Source of the DNA: a virus
Taxonomy: Duplodnaviria > Heunggongvirae > Uroviricota > Caudoviricetes
DNA: 5,228 bases
IMG/VR virus record: IMGVR_UViG_2778261673_000005
Reading direction: 5' to 3' (one strand)
This document shows positions 51-5,228 of this stretch, piece by piece. Under the pieces are notes generated by a model. That model was given only the letters and a program-made list of their open reading frames with translations. It had not been told where the DNA came from and did no database searches. Position 1 is the stretch's first letter; every line of letters starts with the position of its first letter. The position numbers and the translations under genes are program-made.

Positions 51-332
51 CTAAATCAGTAAGTTGGCAGCATCACCCGCCGTGCCATCCTGAGAGAATT
101 CCATATGCAACCTGCATTTTTTCCCTTTCCAGTTATGCGGCTCATCAAGTTTGGCATTAATTGCAGCTCTGATTCCCCGCGCTTGCGCCCCCCATTCATC
201 CTGATCATCCCAGCGTCCTGAACTGCAACTACCTGTAGCAGTAGTTTTGTGGCAATCTGAAGGGTGTAAAGGTGTGCATCCCGCAACAAAACCGACCCAA
301 AAAGTCAACATAACGATTTTCTTTAATCCCAC
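51..332 (-). CDS. Small lipoprotein with partial TolA C-terminal-domain-like sequence (truncated paralog of the 483-911 gene)
   Basis: 93-aa ORF with GTG start at 332 preceded by GAGGAG about 6 nt upstream. N-terminus MGLKKIVMLTFWVGFVAGC has a hydrophobic signal segment and lipobox VAGC. C-terminal ARGIRAAINAKLDEPHNWKGKKCRLHMEFSQDG aligns by eye with AHQIKSAIEKQFGDASKYSGKECTLRMHMAPNG of the neighbouring ORF, but the protein ends before the rest of the domain. Confidence 0.55.
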   Translation of the reverse strand: MGLKKIVMLTFWVGFVAGCTPLHPSDCHKTTATGSCSSGRWDDQDEWGAQARGIRAAINAKLDEPHNWKGKKCRLHMEFSQDGTAGDAANLLI

Positions 333-482
333 TTCTTGCTCCTCAATCCATTAAAATCTCAGCAATAGTAGTTGTTACGTCCGCCACTGGCTCAGAGCTG
401 ACTATCCGCTAAATTTAGCTCAGTGCCGTAGCTGTGTCAGAACAAACCTAAGCCGAAACCGTTTATTACAAAACAATAAATA

Positions 483-911
483 TCAGGGTTTAAAATCCAG
501 CACCCCATTTTGAAATACTTTATATACTTCCGGCGAAGGGGGGGCAGGTATATCAGCATTCTTTATCGCATTCATCGCTTCACGACATAAATCGAGGTCT
601 CCACTTTCTCTTTTAACCTCCAGTAGAAGGCCATTCGGGGCCATATGCATTCTCAGTGTACACTCTTTTCCTGAATACTTACTCGCATCCCCGAACTGTT
701 TTTCGATGGCGCTCTTGATTTGATGGGCATACAGACGGATATCCTCACTAACATCAGAAGTACGTTCAGATGAACTCACATACTGTGTCTCTATTGCTTT
801 ATCGGAGTAATATGATGTACGGTCATGATAATTTGTCGATACAGCATCAGTGCACCCGATAATAATCCCACTAATAATCAACGTAAGAATTGATGCGCTA
901 CGAAAACCCAT
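483..911 (-). CDS. Lipoprotein carrying a TolA C-terminal (domain III)-like domain
   Basis: 142-aa ORF, ATG at 911 with GAGGA just upstream. Signal peptide plus lipobox (LIISGIIIGC). C-terminal ~85 aa (QIKSAIEKQFGDASKYSGKECTLRMHMAPNGLLLEVKRESGDLDLCREAMNAIKNADIPAPPSPEVYKVFQNGVLDFKP) closely resembles the C-terminal domain of E. coli TolA as recalled from memory, including the terminal FKP. Confidence 0.75.
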   Translation of the reverse strand: MGFRSASILTLIISGIIIGCTDAVSTNYHDRTSYYSDKAIETQYVSSSERTSDVSEDIRLYAHQIKSAIEKQFGDASKYSGKECTLRMHMAPNGLLLEVKRESGDLDLCREAMNAIKNADIPAPPSPEVYKVFQNGVLDFKP

Positions 912-940
912 TTTTCCTCACATATGTCATATAGTAAAGG

Positions 941-970
941 ATTATATATACCGTTGTTTTGGACGCTCAA
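941..970 (-). promoter_or_regulatory. Candidate sigma70 promoter for the TolA-like lipoprotein gene(s)
   Basis: On the minus strand: -35 TTGAGC (965-970), 18-bp spacer, -10 TATAAT (941-946), about 25-30 nt upstream of the ATG at 911. Sequence-only prediction. Confidence 0.4.
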
Positions 971-1112
971 ACAGCGAATCAGATCAAATAAAACGCACAT
1001 TTGTTAACATTTACACAAAGTCTGCGTGGGATATTCTGAAAGAATATCCATAATGTGGAGAGAATCTATTGAAGTGCATGGTGCCGGGTGCCTCCCGGTG
1101 AACAAAATGTTC

Positions 1113-1151
1113 GTGATACCTGTCGGCGACAGAAAAGGTTAATGGTATCAC
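1113..1151. repeat. Nested inverted repeats (possible protein-binding site or RNA structure)
   Basis: Outer 8-bp perfect inverted repeat GTGATACC (1113-1120) / GGTATCAC (1144-1151). It encloses the palindrome CTGTC-GGC-GACAG (1120-1132). A further short stem CCGGG/CCCGG lies at 1084-1098. Confidence 0.45.
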
Positions 1152-1508
1152 CCCACCGCACAGGGGGATTCACCATGCAGGAGTTTTCTTAGCAAACTCA
1201 CTGCGCGCCCGGCAACTCCCAACCACATAAAATGCGGAGTTTGTGGCATTTATGCATATAACTCGCAGGAATTATCTTAAAAAACTGATGTCGATCCGGA
1301 TTAAAAAGAAGCAGGTCATCATCAGATGACTGGAAAAAAGGAAAACAAAAAATACTCATCATACAGTTTTGATTGCAGGGATGAGCCTGCTATGCACAAT
1401 ATGCAGAATATAAGCAAGATAAAAATATGCAGGCATATTATTTCGGATTTTGTTATTAACACAACCTTTTTAATAATCATTTGGCATACAATAAACCAGC
1501 CCAGAAAG

Positions 1509-1528
1509 AACCGCCTAAACAGGCGGTT
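1509..1528. repeat. Perfect 8-bp stem, 4-nt loop hairpin
   Basis: AACCGCCT (1509-1516), loop AAAC, AGGCGGTT (1521-1528). On the minus strand it is followed by CTTTCT, so it could be a weak terminator or RNA element. Function unknown. Confidence 0.35.
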
Positions 1529-1772
1529 GGTCAATACAAAGGATGCTTCGTCTTTATTATAGTAATCTGAGGCGTCGGGTGTCTTGTATCAGACAACATA
1601 TTGTCCCGCTAAACAGCGAATTACAAACCACCCTGCAATGATCTCTCATCTCATTTTATATGAGTTGACGACATCAGGATAACGCATCATCAGCCCCTGC
1701 CAAGAAATATCAAAACTCCCGCCAGCAATGTGTTATCACAATATTGTAAAAAAAACACAGCACCGAAACTAT

Positions 1773-1811
1773 AACTGGTCTCTGTTATAATTTGGAGCAG
1801 AAAGACCAGTT
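1773..1811. repeat. 9-bp stem hairpin with 21-nt AT-rich loop
   Basis: AACTGGTCT (1773-1781) pairs with AGACCAGTT (1803-1811). The loop contains TATAAT. It lies about 35 bp from the symmetric terminator. Confidence 0.35.
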
Positions 1812-1845
1812 GCCCAACTAGCAGCATTCTCCCCTGCTTTCCTGA

Positions 1846-1878
1846 CGTAAAAAAACCGCATTAAGCGGTTTTTTTACG
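1846..1878. terminator. Symmetric (bidirectional) rho-independent terminator-like hairpin downstream of the Q-like gene
   Basis: Perfect 14-nt inverted repeat CGTAAAAAAACCGC (1846-1859) / GCGGTTTTTTTACG (1865-1878) with a 5-nt loop. GC core CCGC/GCGG is flanked by an A7 run on one side and a T7 run on the other, so either strand reads stem followed by a U-tract. Confidence 0.5.
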
Positions 1879-1955
1879 ATGTCCATGTCTGCAATCCGCC
1901 TCGCGATACAGCTTTGCGAAGCATAGCAAAATTGAAGCAGTTTATACGTAAGAAA

Positions 1956-2498
1956 TCAAGCCATTTTCTCAGCAAATGATTCACGCATGGGAATATATAG
2001 GGCATACTCAGCAACAGCTAACCAATTAGCAATCCGTTTTTCGCATGTGCTAAAACACCACTCTGGGTGTGCATCATTTAGCAATTCAGCCATTTTGCGC
2101 TTAGTCATCCCCCGCCCTTCATAGCGTTGCCGGAGAATGCAAATCAATCCTGGATGCTCTGCCAGCACCTCACTTATGACTCGATCAATACATAACGCCT
2201 CTGCATCAGTACAATGCGCCAGCCAGCTCTTTTGCTTGCCGTTGATCATCTCTCGCAAAAACGCTTCCAGCTCAGCTTTCTCTATTCCCGCTTTTTTCAT
2301 TCTGCGCAGGGCTTCATTAATGGCTGTTTTCGTCAGTTTTTTGGATGCCAACAACTGATTGAACATATTCCCTGACCTGCCACCGCCAATATACGACCAG
2401 CGCCCCCACATACGTAGTTTTCCCTGAATCCAGACACTTTCCAGCGTGGTGAGGCGAAGGTGTTCTCCGCTTTTTCCTGTATTCGTTGGGTAAATCAT
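1956..2498 (-). CDS. Putative late-gene antitermination protein, phage-82-type Q-like
   Basis: 180-aa ORF directly downstream of the nin-like genes and upstream of a terminator. Start overlaps the preceding gene stop in ATGA (2495-2498). Motifs LRMWGRW and CTDAEALCI resemble, from memory, the WG-W and Cys-rich signatures of phage-82-family Q proteins. Not verified by search. Confidence 0.55.
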   Translation of the reverse strand: MIYPTNTGKSGEHLRLTTLESVWIQGKLRMWGRWSYIGGGRSGNMFNQLLASKKLTKTAINEALRRMKKAGIEKAELEAFLREMINGKQKSWLAHCTDAEALCIDRVISEVLAEHPGLICILRQRYEGRGMTKRKMAELLNDAHPEWCFSTCEKRIANWLAVAEYALYIPMRESFAEKMA

Positions 2499-2785
2499 AA
2501 ATGACCTTTCTTTCTCCAGATTTCTTGTGTGCGAAAAACCCCTTCAGCATGCATCAGGCGCAATTCTTCTTTGGTGTAATCGCTGGTTTTTACCCGCCCG
2601 TCGATTAGATCGTGGCATGAGCTACAGGCTATCGCCGCCTGCATATCGTGTGGTTTTGTCGCTGTTCCGCACGTCCCCGCCAGCCTGTAATGCGCCAGCA
2701 CAGAGGTTTCGGGATTGTGATTGCAGTAGCCAGGGATTCTGATCTGGCACATCTGGCCTTTAGCCGCTTTACGTAAATTCACCAT
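2495..2785 (-). CDS. YbcO-like DUF1364 family phage protein (putative nuclease) of the nin region
   Basis: 96-aa ORF. LRKAAKGQMCQIRIPGYCNHNPETSVLAHYRLAGTCGTATKP...IACSSCHD matches the Cys/His-rich pattern of E. coli prophage YbcO (DUF1364) as recalled. Start ATG overlaps the upstream stop (TAATG at 2783-2787). Confidence 0.75.
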   Translation of the reverse strand: MVNLRKAAKGQMCQIRIPGYCNHNPETSVLAHYRLAGTCGTATKPHDMQAAIACSSCHDLIDGRVKTSDYTKEELRLMHAEGVFRTQEIWRKKGHL

Positions 2786-3384
2786 TACGCAAACTCCAGT
2801 AGTTGTGCGGCCACATTTTCAACTTCCTCCTGAGAGGAGAATTTACGGAACAGAATCCAGTTCCACAGCACATTCAGTACAGATTTATAAACCTGCTGAA
2901 ACTCGACTTCGTCCATATTCGCAAAAGCGATGGATTTTGCCCGACGCCCACGGCTACCGTCCGGATAAATATGCTCGGTGTAAAATCCGGCCTGAATGGT
3001 TACCCACTCGCGGAAAGCCTCAAACGACTTTAGCAACGCCGTATCCCGGGTTCTACGAGTCGCAACGGTGTTAAGGTATTGCTCTGCGGCATCACTCAGG
3101 GCTGATGTGTGTTCCCGACCAACTGATTCGCACAGGTAATCCACGAAACCAGACAGCAGTTCTCGTTCGCGAGGCGTGATCGCCCCACCGACCGGAGTCC
3201 AGTAATCGAATCCCAGTTGCAGGAGTTTGAAAAAACGCTTGTGGAATGCGTAGTTACGCACACGCTTAAAGTCTGCGTGTATCCACTCACCTATTTTGAT
3301 TTGATGCAGAAAATCGCAACTCTCCGGCGTCGCCGGGAGAAGTAAACCAGAAGAGGTTTGTTTGACCAGTTGTATATGCGCCAT
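2785..3384 (-). CDS. DUF1367-like lambdoid phage nin-region protein
   Basis: 199-aa ORF with GC-rich, host-like codon composition. Its size and its position immediately upstream of a DUF1364-like gene and Q match the DUF1367-DUF1364-Q neighbourhood recalled from enterobacterial prophages. Family assignment is from memory only. Confidence 0.6.
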   Translation of the reverse strand: MAHIQLVKQTSSGLLLPATPESCDFLHQIKIGEWIHADFKRVRNYAFHKRFFKLLQLGFDYWTPVGGAITPRERELLSGFVDYLCESVGREHTSALSDAAEQYLNTVATRRTRDTALLKSFEAFREWVTIQAGFYTEHIYPDGSRGRRAKSIAFANMDEVEFQQVYKSVLNVLWNWILFRKFSSQEEVENVAAQLLEFA

Positions 3385-3442
3385 TTCTCAATCTCTCGAT
3401 GGCGCAGTGCAGCAGATGCCAGTTGTTCAGGCTGACGTATAA

Positions 3443-3470
3443 AGTATAAATAAACTGGTTCCAGTGTAAA
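3443..3470 (-). promoter_or_regulatory. Candidate sigma70 promoter for the nin-like/Q operon
   Basis: On the minus strand: -35 TTTACA (3465-3470), 16-bp spacer, -10 TATACT (3443-3448), about 55 nt upstream of the ATG at 3384. It lies downstream of the terminator that ends the S8 gene. Sequence-only prediction in AT-rich DNA. Confidence 0.35.
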
Positions 3471-3506
3471 GCCCCCACATTGATGGAATAAAAATCAAAC
3501 AATAGA

Positions 3507-3536
3507 TTGCTGGGATAAAAATACAACGCTTATTAT
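3507..3536 (+). promoter_or_regulatory. Candidate promoter for the small hydrophobic ORF
   Basis: -35 TTGCTG (3507-3512), 18-bp spacer, -10 TATTAT (3531-3536). This would give a leader of roughly 115 nt before the ATG at 3659. Weak prediction; other hexamer pairs in this AT-rich region are possible. Confidence 0.2.
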
Positions 3537-3658
3537 TAAAGCGGTTAGACAAATTAAATTTTAATGTTATGCAAATCTGCCAGATTAGCATAATATCTCA
3601 TTTGAAAACCGCTGAAATAACAATCTTATCAGGATTAATCATATTAAGGTGAGTAAAT

Positions 3659-3745
3659 ATGGAAAACAACAAATCTGCACATTACGCTCCTTTTTTATCT
3701 GTAATACTTTTTGTATTTTGTTGTGTATGGGCGGTATTTTTATAA
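3659..3745 (+). CDS. Unlisted small ORF encoding a 28-aa hydrophobic peptide (candidate small membrane protein or toxin-like peptide)
   Basis: ATG at 3659 preceded by AAGGTGA (3646-3652) with 6-nt spacing. Translation is MENNKSAHYAPFLSVILFVFCCVWAVFL, stop TAA at 3743-3745: a polar N-terminus followed by one 17-residue hydrophobic segment. It is followed 14 nt later by the strong hairpin at 3759-3792. Absent from the ORF track, presumably because of a length cutoff. Confidence 0.45.
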   Translation: MENNKSAHYAPFLSVILFVFCCVWAVFL

Positions 3746-3758
3746 AACACACCCACAA

Positions 3759-3792
3759 ATAAATCAAACCCGCTACAGCGGGTTTGATTTAT
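3759..3792. terminator. Strong hairpin terminator between the convergent small ORF (+) and S8 peptidase gene (-)
   Basis: 15-bp perfect stem 3759-3773 / 3778-3792 (core AAATCAAACCCGC / GCGGGTTTGATTT) with 4-nt loop TACA. It lies 7 nt beyond the S8 stop on the minus strand and 14 nt beyond the small-ORF stop on the plus strand. T-rich flanks on both sides but no clean U-run. Confidence 0.55.
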
Positions 3793-3799
3793 ATAGTTG

Positions 3800-5167
3800 T
3801 TATACGGAAACTGGCACACGAGCAGGCAATGGATAGTGAGCCCAGTTATTAGCATTTAAAGCTCTTACACCATCAGCATAAACTTGTGTGTTTCCATCTA
3901 ATGATTTTAAAGTTACTACAATAGTTACAGGTAAAGGCTCCATTAAGGCCGGTTCATTCGCTCTCAACGTTGTTTTAGCCTGAAGAGCCCAGTTACCCGA
4001 AGTAATTCCTTTATTAAATGCCTTGCGATGAATTTTTACTGGTGACCACTTTCCACCATGCTCAATTTGAGCTCTCTCATATCCAGATTGACCGTTTTCT
4101 CCTTCCATAGGCACTTTTCCTTTTATAGTATTATTCTCAATTAAGCCAAAACTTAGCTCTACGTTCGCGCGAACATATTCACTGCCGGCATTAGGGTTTA
4201 GTGGTGGTGCATATGCAGCAGTAATTACAATCTCACCTTTAAATTTTCCATTTTGAATAAGTGCCGATGGTATGGGATAGTTTTCCTTTCTCCACCTCAC
4301 CCCAGGAACCAAGAATGTTTGGAAAATCAGAGTAAACCTATCATCACTATCATATAAGGTCTCAATAACCTCATTAGGAATTCCCGCTCCCAAATAGCGT
4401 CTTTCACTTGGCGAGTAATCAGGAGAAGATAATTGAGCGGAATGAATTAATAATGCTTTAATCAATGATGGTGAAACATTAAAGTCTGAATTAGTGGCTA
4501 TTCTCTGCCATGTATGCGCAGCTAAACTTGCCACAATTGGAGCAGCAAAACTAGTACCAAAATTAGAGCAAAGCCTATTATCTGGCCCTACGACCTTTAA
4601 ACTGCTTGCTCCTACATTCCAAGGTCTATGAACCCCACCGCCAGCATGGATTATATCTGGCTTTGGAGTAAATACAGGCCCAGGGCCACGACGAGTATAT
4701 GGTGTCGGTGTTCCAATTTCACTTAAAGCATCATTAGCTTCCATATGAGAAACTGAACCAACTGTTAGTGCTCGGACTGACTCTCCAGGAGAGGAAATTA
4801 AATCAGCACCTCCAAGCGGATCAGGATTTGGCCATGTACGTATAGGTTCATCTACATAATTACCTGCAGCAACTACAAACAAAATACCAAATTTATCGCT
4901 GAGCCGATCTAACTCCATCGCAAAATCACTAAACATCTGCTCATTACATGGTCCGCCTCCCAAAGACAAATTCCAGACTTTTATATCTGGTCTTTTATTT
5001 ACAGCATCTGCTAGCCTCAGAATTAAATCTGATATATAAGATCCATTTTCATCTAAAGCACAAACATCATGGATTTTAGATTTTGTATCAGGAATCCATG
5101 GATGATTGTCATTTAAAAAATGAGCGCCTGATATCAATGAAGACACCATAGTGATCTTACCCAGCAA
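3800..5167 (-). CDS. S8 family (subtilisin-like) serine peptidase homolog with uncharacterised C-terminal extension; N-terminal catalytic motifs not recognisable (possibly truncated or inactive)
   Basis: 455-aa ORF. Contains S8 hallmarks GTSFAAP (catalytic Ser motif), VVAAGN (oxyanion-hole Asn motif) and NLSLGGG, in subtilisin-like order and spacing. No D-[ST]-G Asp motif or canonical HGT His motif precedes them. The first in-frame start is TTG at 5167 with no clear SD; alternative ATG at 5149. An in-frame TGA lies at 5198-5200. About 200 C-terminal residues have no family I can recognise. GC content is visibly lower than the nin block. Confidence 0.7.
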   Translation of the reverse strand: MLGKITMVSSLISGAHFLNDNHPWIPDTKSKIHDVCALDENGSYISDLILRLADAVNKRPDIKVWNLSLGGGPCNEQMFSDFAMELDRLSDKFGILFVVAAGNYVDEPIRTWPNPDPLGGADLISSPGESVRALTVGSVSHMEANDALSEIGTPTPYTRRGPGPVFTPKPDIIHAGGGVHRPWNVGASSLKVVGPDNRLCSNFGTSFAAPIVASLAAHTWQRIATNSDFNVSPSLIKALLIHSAQLSSPDYSPSERRYLGAGIPNEVIETLYDSDDRFTLIFQTFLVPGVRWRKENYPIPSALIQNGKFKGEIVITAAYAPPLNPNAGSEYVRANVELSFGLIENNTIKGKVPMEGENGQSGYERAQIEHGGKWSPVKIHRKAFNKGITSGNWALQAKTTLRANEPALMEPLPVTIVVTLKSLDGNTQVYADGVRALNANNWAHYPLPARVPVSV

Positions 5168-5216
5168 TAGTGGACACGCGGCTAAGTGAGTAAACTCTCA
5201 GTCAGAGGTGACTCAC

Positions 5217-5228
5217 ATGACAAAAACA
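5217..5228 (+). CDS. Probable start of a rightward gene running out of the window (product unknown)
   Basis: ATG at 5217 (ATG ACA AAA ACA = MTKT) preceded by AGAGGTGA (5204-5211) with 5-nt spacing. Only four codons are visible. Confidence 0.25.

Follow-up and report, generated by a model that had tools for sequence, protein, structure and literature searches.

What occupies the 1 kb of DNA that follows the Q-like gene in a viral sequence of 5228 nucleotides (IMG/VR record IMGVR_UViG_2778261673_000005, Caudoviricetes; the whole stretch is referred to here as the window)? An earlier note on this DNA had recorded that positions 912-1955, which we call the gap, lack a convincing open reading frame (ORF) at a place where a lysis cassette would be expected, and had offered small RNAs, regulatory RNA structures or the scar of a deleted late region in a decaying prophage as explanations. 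The present analysis supports, with a probability of roughly 0.8, the interpretation that the gap, read on the minus strand, is the untranslated leader and the cargo slot of a late operon belonging to a Rac-type lambdoid prophage. This interpretation is carried by the anatomy of the gap, the membership of one of its segments in the STnc100 family of RNAs (Rfam RF02076), the pattern of conservation and the absence of genes. The arrangement is an ordinary one and is already known in kind.

In the scheme that we infer for the start site, for the action of the Q-like protein and for the expression and targets of the window's STnc100 copy, RNA polymerase would start constitutively at a weak promoter overlapping the end of the Q-like gene and, in a lysogen, would stop ∼75 nt further on at a strong terminator (1878-1846), leaving a short leader RNA. 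After induction, the Q-like protein, a member of the DUF1133 family, would make the polymerase resistant to terminators. The modified enzyme would then read through 1878-1846, through a second terminator at 1528-1502 and through the STnc100 hairpins into two genes for TolA-like lipoproteins and, where the prophage copy is intact, onward into holin, lysozyme, Rz and structural genes. STnc100 would either be released as a small RNA or form a structured part of the late transcript.

Conservation of the gap and its place in the late operon

The 1044 bp of the gap are present in 446 of the 5426 complete Escherichia coli genomes (∼8%), and the full-length copies (∼450) share identities of >99%. The late direction is assigned to the minus strand because of the gene layout, all six sizeable ORFs of the window lying on that strand. 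Positions 78-5152 of the window are 99.9% identical to the Rac-type prophage of E. coli SCU-104, the one relative whose annotation was read for genes past the gap. The gene order upstream in SCU-104 is racR, ydaS, ydaT, ydaU, ydaV, genes of the DUF1627 and DUF977 families (function unknown), iteA and iteS, continuing with DUF1367, DUF1364, DUF1133 and the gap. Past the gap follow two tolA-like genes, the holin gene, the rrrD lysozyme gene, Rz, trkG, ParB, the terminase genes and head genes, of which the lysis, terminase and head genes appear to be intact.

These observations do not support the scar of a deleted late region, since the same 1044 bp recur across the genomes counted above and a full lysis cassette lies beyond them in SCU-104. 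The alignment to an intact relative that had been proposed as a check places the gap ahead of the two tolA-like genes and the holin-lysozyme-Rz genes. Lysis genes are absent from the window because IS1 ends at position 77, downstream of the gap. The expectation of a lysis cassette directly after Q was itself too strict, as every related phage examined carries cargo between Q and holin in the form of tRNA genes, toxin genes, small RNAs or lipoprotein genes. What stands of the earlier suggestion of a decaying prophage is that this particular copy is decaying, having been truncated on both sides by the insertion sequences IS1 and IS3; the gap itself is not a lesion.

Absence of a protein-coding gene

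As the earlier note had stated, ∼1 kb after the Q-like gene lacks a convincing ORF, only short overlapping ORFs being found in the 1044 bp. The longest of these encodes 78 residues, compared with a mean longest ORF of 81 ± 21 residues in 2000 simulated sequences matched in composition, 51% of which reach 78 residues. Searches with the gap ORFs against Pfam (ten ORFs), NCBIfam (eight) and PHROGs (seven) returned no match, and no listed genome with a full-length copy carries an annotation under the gap from the NCBI pipeline. When 5720 translated stop-to-stop segments from 93 related loci were compared, the only matches were echoes of nucleotide similarity that fell in several frames and on both strands, indicating conservation of nucleotide sequence rather than of a protein. 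The same translated comparison found no remnant of any gene from the 93 loci in one consistent frame of the spacer that lies within the gap. Neither frame comparison across the available haplotypes nor a count by codon position gave a coding signal. In the diverged relatives SK6988 and M19 the gap region contains a 59-bp insertion and 1-bp insertions or deletions. No reading frame is kept across the diverged relatives, so that homolog comparison, set earlier as the test for a conserved protein-coding gene that had been missed, yields none. On the sequence evidence, the gap holds no gene.

The ORF that could most nearly argue otherwise is a hydrophobic one of 70 residues at 1534-1322, which would encode a small membrane protein or toxin; that it is a hidden gene is considered highly improbable. 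It lies on the late strand and apparently contains two hydrophobic segments, and in SK6988 and M19 the frame remains open for ∼57 codons after a shared TTG, at a nucleotide identity of 83%. However, this TTG start falls inside a terminator stem, no obvious ribosome-binding site was found for it and searches of Pfam, NCBIfam and PHROGs with the product were negative. Of the 11 substitutions in the block without gaps, five are at the third codon position, four at the first and two at the second, and most of them alter the encoded residue. Translated matches are equally good on the opposite strand. The frame is broken by stops and frame shifts in 2012C-4221 and strain 8178, and 683R6-type phages have a different sequence in this region. 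Hydrophobic ORFs also arise by chance on a T-rich strand, and the length of this one is at the chance level.

Q-like protein, late promoter and leader

The protein encoded immediately upstream of the gap matches DUF1133 (2.5e-107) and PHROG 753, 'anti-termination protein Q-like' (2e-79), and reaches Pfam PF06530 at threshold (26.1 bits for a cut-off of 26, E = 8.6e-6). Its top matches among solved structures are to phage 21 Q, with a non-significant E of 0.27. The protein is thus probably an antiterminator with a distant relationship to the Q family of phage 21.

The putative late promoter combines a -35 element, TTGATT (1959-1954), that overlaps the stop codon of the Q-like gene with a -10 element, TTCAAT (1936-1931), across a 17-nt spacer. 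It is kept in nearly all of 80 viral contigs selected for a Q-like protein 94-100% identical to that of the window, the exceptions being one contig with TTTAAT and one that is cut before the -10 element. In this set ∼60 nt past the Q stop codon are conserved and are followed, at equal distance, by one of five unrelated terminator hairpins. A -10-like TAnGCT motif downstream of the promoter could, as a conjecture, act as a sigma-dependent pause element.

The terminator occupying this position in the window, 78-110 nt past the Q stop codon, is a perfect 14-bp inverted repeat with a 5-nt loop and A7/T7 flanks, and its palindrome is the sole notable repeat in the gap. Terminators are similarly placed, ∼85-110 nt after Q, in Rac-SA53 (Q 76% identical) and in Klebsiella phage KpF5 (61%). 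The earlier description of a Q-like gene followed by a terminator is therefore accurate, and the promoter-proximal short terminated RNA that was expected after Q has a counterpart in the predicted leader and its terminator. The leader would include a 7-bp hairpin, GCUUCGC/GCGAGGC, at 1922-1898.

In its general plan the predicted leader resembles IsrK of Gifsy-1 (RF01394), which likewise starts ∼33 nt past the stop codon of a Q-like gene, has a 5' hairpin and a terminator and is ∼75 nt in length (PMC4825925). Identity of 1922-1849 with IsrK was nevertheless rejected: the Rfam isrK model scores 21.6 bits on the minus strand (20.1 on the plus strand) against a gathering score of 50, and the window contains no ORFs of an orf45-antirepressor (anrP) module downstream. 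Phage pPE4 (vB_Apl-pPE4; locus L005) carries both elements, which shows that the window match is not IsrK. In this phage an inserted module that combines a true isrK, scoring 74.4 bits, with a C4 antisense RNA and an ORF placed like anrP of Gifsy-1 is followed by a window-type block, extending from the TTG of the -35 element through the terminator, ∼0.9 kb further on. Recurrence of the block past an inserted module suggests that promoter and terminator behave as a unit. The coordinates recorded for this arrangement in L005 are 3575-3776 and 4432-4530. The phage is filed as an Actinobacillus phage, yet the presence of hok/sok and of a Q-like protein with 88.6% identity to the E. coli one makes this host assignment look doubtful.

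The same terminator might also serve a transcript from the other strand. An undescribed plus-strand small RNA of ∼78 nt (∼1798-1876), convergent with the late leader and ending at the shared terminator, would be compatible with the late-operon interpretation, although its existence is unlikely. An extended -10 element, TGtTATAAT, can be read from the plus-strand sequence at 1783-1791, with TATAAT or TATAGT as the -10 box in two other prophages; an 84-nt stretch of this strand folds with z = -7.0 relative to shuffled sequences, and the terminator is perfect in both directions. However, most of the fold energy derives from the shared terminator, and the extended -10 element is unlisted by the consensus scan. 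The two relatives with the -10 box have a different downstream sequence, in which such a transcript would run antisense into a tRNA gene, whereas the relatives that keep the transcribed part lack the box. Rfam matches at the candidate are only weak (∼20 bits).

Spacer and second terminator

Positions 1845-1209 (∼640 bp) are AT-rich (GC 0.33-0.43) and mosaic, being assembled from pieces that are 74-95% identical to different prophages. Segments 1795-1625 and 1792-1668 are 79 and 74% identical, respectively, to DNA located just after tRNA-Gly genes in two other prophages, and 1719-1665 is 76% identical to strain M19. The interval from Q to tolA in M19 has the same order as that of the window, with matching segments 76-95% identical: the pR' block and terminator are followed by four tRNA genes (Ile, Arg, Thr and Gly; L094 3242-3551) and then by the counterparts of 1719-1665, 1584-1289 (83%) and 1288-912 (95%). 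Between one and four tRNA genes (Ile, Arg, Thr, Gly) stand directly past the terminator in relatives with the same Q family, including L003 3559-3709 and L006 2949-3021. In the gap neither ARAGORN nor Rfam detected a tRNA gene or remnant, and the presence of these genes in relatives but not in the window indicates that the content of the slot turns over quickly. A search of 1200-1960 for a second Rfam family with permissive filters returned only noise (≤23 bits).

Within this region, 1502-1584 is read here as a second late-strand terminator. SK6988 and M19 keep its stem, AACCGCC(U)/(A)GGCGGUU, and the U-rich run, with one pair being C-A on the late strand and G-U on the other, and 683R6-type phages retain the stem of 1528-1509 with a different loop and a U8 tail. 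The hairpin recorded earlier at 1509-1528 is accordingly real: relatives retain the stem around a different loop, and a T-tract comes after it on the minus strand. The fold z-scores of 1502-1584 reach only -1.0 (minus strand) and -2.3 (plus strand). In 683R6, a weak STnc100-like match (22.9 bits) ends at a terminator that is apparently, by position, homologous to 1528-1509. The possibility that 1584-1505 is the 3' terminus of another STnc100 or of a PasD-like RNA was also considered and rejected; the terminator module alone remains in the window. A further hairpin from the earlier note, at 1773-1811, can be drawn but is not well formed, as 1740-1850 has no folding advantage over shuffled sequence (z = -0.8 and -1.65). 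It was also rejected as a conserved structure, its two arms each being kept in different relatives and never together.

The patchwork nature of the spacer raises the alternative that the gap is the debris of deleted genes or tRNA genes in a decaying prophage, now functionless except for STnc100. M19 shares the Q family, the pR' block and the STnc100-tolA end with the window, yet has four tRNA genes where the window has none; the resemblance of 1795-1625 to DNA following tRNA-Gly in two other prophages, the mosaic of pieces 74-95% identical to different prophages and the interruption of this prophage copy by IS1 and IS3 would also fit such an origin. Against this stands the recurrence of the 1044 bp in 446 complete genomes. 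In SCU-104 the genes for lysis, terminase and head that border the gap look intact, an arrangement compatible with a complete late operon, and the spacer lacks a consistent-frame translated remnant of any gene from the 93 related loci. Diverged relatives also retain the 1528-1509 terminator, and the tRNA-less form may equally be ancestral, with an insertion in M19. Debris is therefore regarded as improbable; the only possible loss inside the gap, judging from these comparisons, would be a tRNA array such as that of M19.

The STnc100 element

The minus strand at 1208-1022 matches STnc100 over the full model (positions 1-206) with 86.6 bits against a gathering score of 47 (E = 3e-18) and is assigned to this family with high confidence. 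The small RNAs or RNA structures that the earlier note had envisaged are thus represented by at least this family member, and two of the hairpins that it listed, 1084-1098 and 1113-1151, are real and lie within the match. The stretch has a fold z-score of -4.1 and accounts for the GC peak of the gap. Both the cmscan alignment and the centroid fold contain a closing helix, GCAUGGUG/CACCAUGC, that encloses a 5' hairpin (CCCCC...GGGG) and a 3' hairpin (CCGGG AGGCA CCCGG). In an alignment of eight STnc100 copies, the closing helix is formed by two invariant cores, GCAUGGUGAAUCCCCC... and ...CACCGGGAGGCACCCGGCACCAUGC. With respect to the covariation check proposed earlier, this helix is kept in all eight copies, with two compensatory pairs in L008:2940-3147. 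The central domain between the cores is wholly different in sequence and length from copy to copy, that of the window being the shortest.

The window element agrees with the family in its full-model match, its invariant 5' and 3' cores, its closing helix and its habitat between Q and the lysis genes, where STnc100 is also found in mEp460, a DLP12-like prophage, VT1-Sakai (∼80 nt after stx1B), 2012C-4221 and SK6988. It differs in its short central domain, which is shared only with copies in SK6988 and M19, and in its position upstream of a TolA-like lipoprotein gene, whereas EcOnc27/sRNA103 lies downstream of stx2B. It also lacks the GC-rich terminator and U-tail of the family, having instead an AU-rich hairpin, GGAUAUUCUUUCAGAAUAUCC, followed by CACGCAG with no U-tract. 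This AU-rich 3' form is shared by mEp460 and, with one mismatch, by the SK6988 copy beside tolA. A weak hairpin at 985-1027 may be the 3' end of the window's variant. Positions 1288-1209 travel with STnc100 in relatives and may hold its promoter; a convincing STnc100 promoter was not found in 1209-1288.

Published work has shown other copies of the family to be transcribed in lysogens. In EDL933 the 11 copies predicted by Rfam are transcribed, one of them with a northern blot (PMC5331693). STnc100 overlaps the Hfq-bound EcOnc27 downstream of stx2B (PMC12711010) and has been found in outer-membrane vesicles (PMC12370729), and a common origin of STnc100 and PasD has been proposed (bioRxiv 10.64898/2026.05.13.724894). 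The window's copy would act by base pairing in association with Hfq or serve as a structured segment of the late transcript.

SK6988 (locus L008) contains four STnc100 copies, all above the gathering score, in a single Q-to-lysis interval (2940-3147, 3198-3402, 4124-4297 and 6203-6416). They flank a tolA-like gene, an IS200/IS605 transposase gene and iraM, and look like cassette boundaries.

The window matches mEp460 at 100% identity as far as 1102, at the edge of the 3' core, and at lower identity past that point; identity to 2012C-4221 begins at 1151, adjoining the 5' core. Recombination junctions between otherwise unrelated prophages thus fall at or beside the STnc100 cores (1102 and 1151). 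A tentative suggestion, which we consider unlikely, is that STnc100-type elements do more than serve as small RNAs and are modular boundary elements of the lambdoid cargo slot. The two invariant clamps of ∼26 nt around a hypervariable centre could then be crossover points at which cargo genes are shuffled, and the terminator-less variant of the window, fused to a TolA-like gene, would be a structured 5' leader and not a free RNA.

Comparison with known late control regions

The order of a putative promoter at the end of Q, a predicted short leader, a terminator and late genes corresponds to the lambda-type late control region (pR', Q-utilisation site, tR' and 6S RNA). In the annotation of VT1-Sakai the late promoter likewise overlaps Q, and a Q-utilisation site and pR' terminators are marked. 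In lysogens of Stx phages the short terminated pR' transcript (StxS RNA) is an established by-product (PMC7547250). The window differs from the lambda and Stx systems in that its antiterminator belongs to DUF1133, an unstudied family, and in that its promoter and any Q-binding element or pause site are predictions; the ∼75-nt leader has no sequence similarity to the lambda or Stx-phage leaders.

A variable insert between tR' and holin that is expressed with the late operon is likewise familiar from Stx, LT-II and other lambdoid phages. Such cargo consists of tRNA genes in 683R6, KpF5 and M19, of the pertussis-like toxin genes eplBA in Rac-SA53 and of stx1 in VT1-Sakai, whereas the slot of the window is without a toxin or tRNA gene and holds only the spacer, STnc100 and two genes for TolA-domain lipoproteins.

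Flanking genes and other features of the window

The features of the window are listed in Table 1.

Table 1. Positions of genes and of observed or predicted elements in the 5228-nucleotide window
Feature	Position	Strand	Sequence or basis
S8 peptidase gene	5167-3800	minus	
DUF1367 gene	3384-2785	minus	
YbcO gene	2785-2495	minus	
DUF1133 Q-like gene	2498-1956	minus	
Putative late promoter (pR'-like)	1931-1959	minus	Read from sequence
-10-like TAnGCT	1925-1920	minus	Read from sequence
Predicted leader RNA, ∼75 nt, terminated	1849-1924	minus	Fold z = -4.3; start site inferred
Bidirectional intrinsic terminator, tR' position	1846-1878	both	CGTAAAAAAACCGC / GCGGTTTTTTTACG
Mosaic AT-rich spacer	1585-1845	minus	Sequence comparison
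Conserved terminator module (putative)	1502-1584	minus	Hairpin AACCGCCU/AGGCGGUU (1528-1509), then UUCUUUCU
AT-rich spacer, GC ∼0.33	1209-1501	minus	No conserved reading frame
STnc100 (RF02076), variant with short central domain	1022-1208	minus	cmscan
Weak hairpin, possible 3' end of STnc100 variant	985-1027	minus	Hairpin then UUUUAUUU; inference only
Promoter-like TTGAGC-18-TATAAT ahead of TolA-like lipoprotein gene	941-970	minus	Consensus scan, 10/12
Shine-Dalgarno GAGGA of TolA-like lipoprotein gene	919-915	minus	
Lipoprotein gene with TolA C-terminal domain, first gene past the gap	911-483	minus	
Second TolA-like lipoprotein gene copy, truncated	332-51	minus	

The first TolA-like lipoprotein matches the TolA C-terminal domain of Pfam PF06519 (2.4e-23), and genes for such lipoproteins lie between STnc100 and holin in several lambdoid prophages and in phage mEp460. 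It may be conjectured that the tandem lipoproteins mimic TolA domain III and could interfere with Tol-dependent colicins or filamentous phages.

Positions 1-77 fall under features annotated as IS1, and the last 76 nt of the window (5153-5228) are the start of IS3, 100% identical to the F plasmid copy. The IS1 junction at 77/78 cuts the second TolA-like lipoprotein gene, and the 93-residue ORF at 332-51 is chimeric because its reading frame runs past this junction into IS1. The exact IS1 junction was found as a single continuous match in no complete E. coli genome of the collection searched. At the other end, IS3 cuts the S8 peptidase gene, which in the intact relative is iteS (2265 nt), the partner of the anti-phage ATPase iteA; this truncation implies that the defence system is broken in the window's prophage copy.

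A second gene-free stretch, 3385-3799 (415 bp), is AT-rich and lies between the peptidase gene and DUF1367. It contains a palindromic terminator-like hairpin, AAACCCGCTACAGCGGGTTT, at ∼3766-3789, which gives rise to a weak Leu_leader match (20.7 bits), and it probably comprises both the defence-gene terminator and the promoter from which the DUF1367-YbcO-Q operon is read.

Conclusions

Several points weigh against the assignment of the gap to an untranslated leader and cargo slot. The late promoter agrees with the consensus at 8 of 12 positions, which is weak, and is unlisted by the consensus scan. The link between DUF1133 and the proven Q families is a similarity at threshold level, and a measured start site, pause or Q-dependent read-through was found for no DUF1133-type Q. 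The near-identity (>99%) of the ∼450 copies of the gap means that they carry no information on selection. Since the STnc100 copy is missing the GC-rich terminator with U-tail, its release as a free small RNA of the Hfq type may not take place, and the ∼640-bp spacer has no assigned role beyond one terminator.

At the probability given above, the assignment would nevertheless resolve an unannotated 1 kb in ∼8% of complete E. coli genomes into a promoter-terminator block, a spacer and STnc100, and a stretch of this kind should not be taken as a sign that a prophage is decaying. Neither the block associated with DUF1133 nor the STnc100 clamp points are surprising in view of existing knowledge on Stx phages, and both will be of modest use to specialists. 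The combination of a DUF1133-type Q, a conserved block of ∼60 nt and interchangeable terminators offers a ready test system for an unstudied antiterminator family. The coincidence of mosaic junctions with the STnc100 clamps around a variable core bears on how cargo, including toxin genes, moves between lambdoid prophages.

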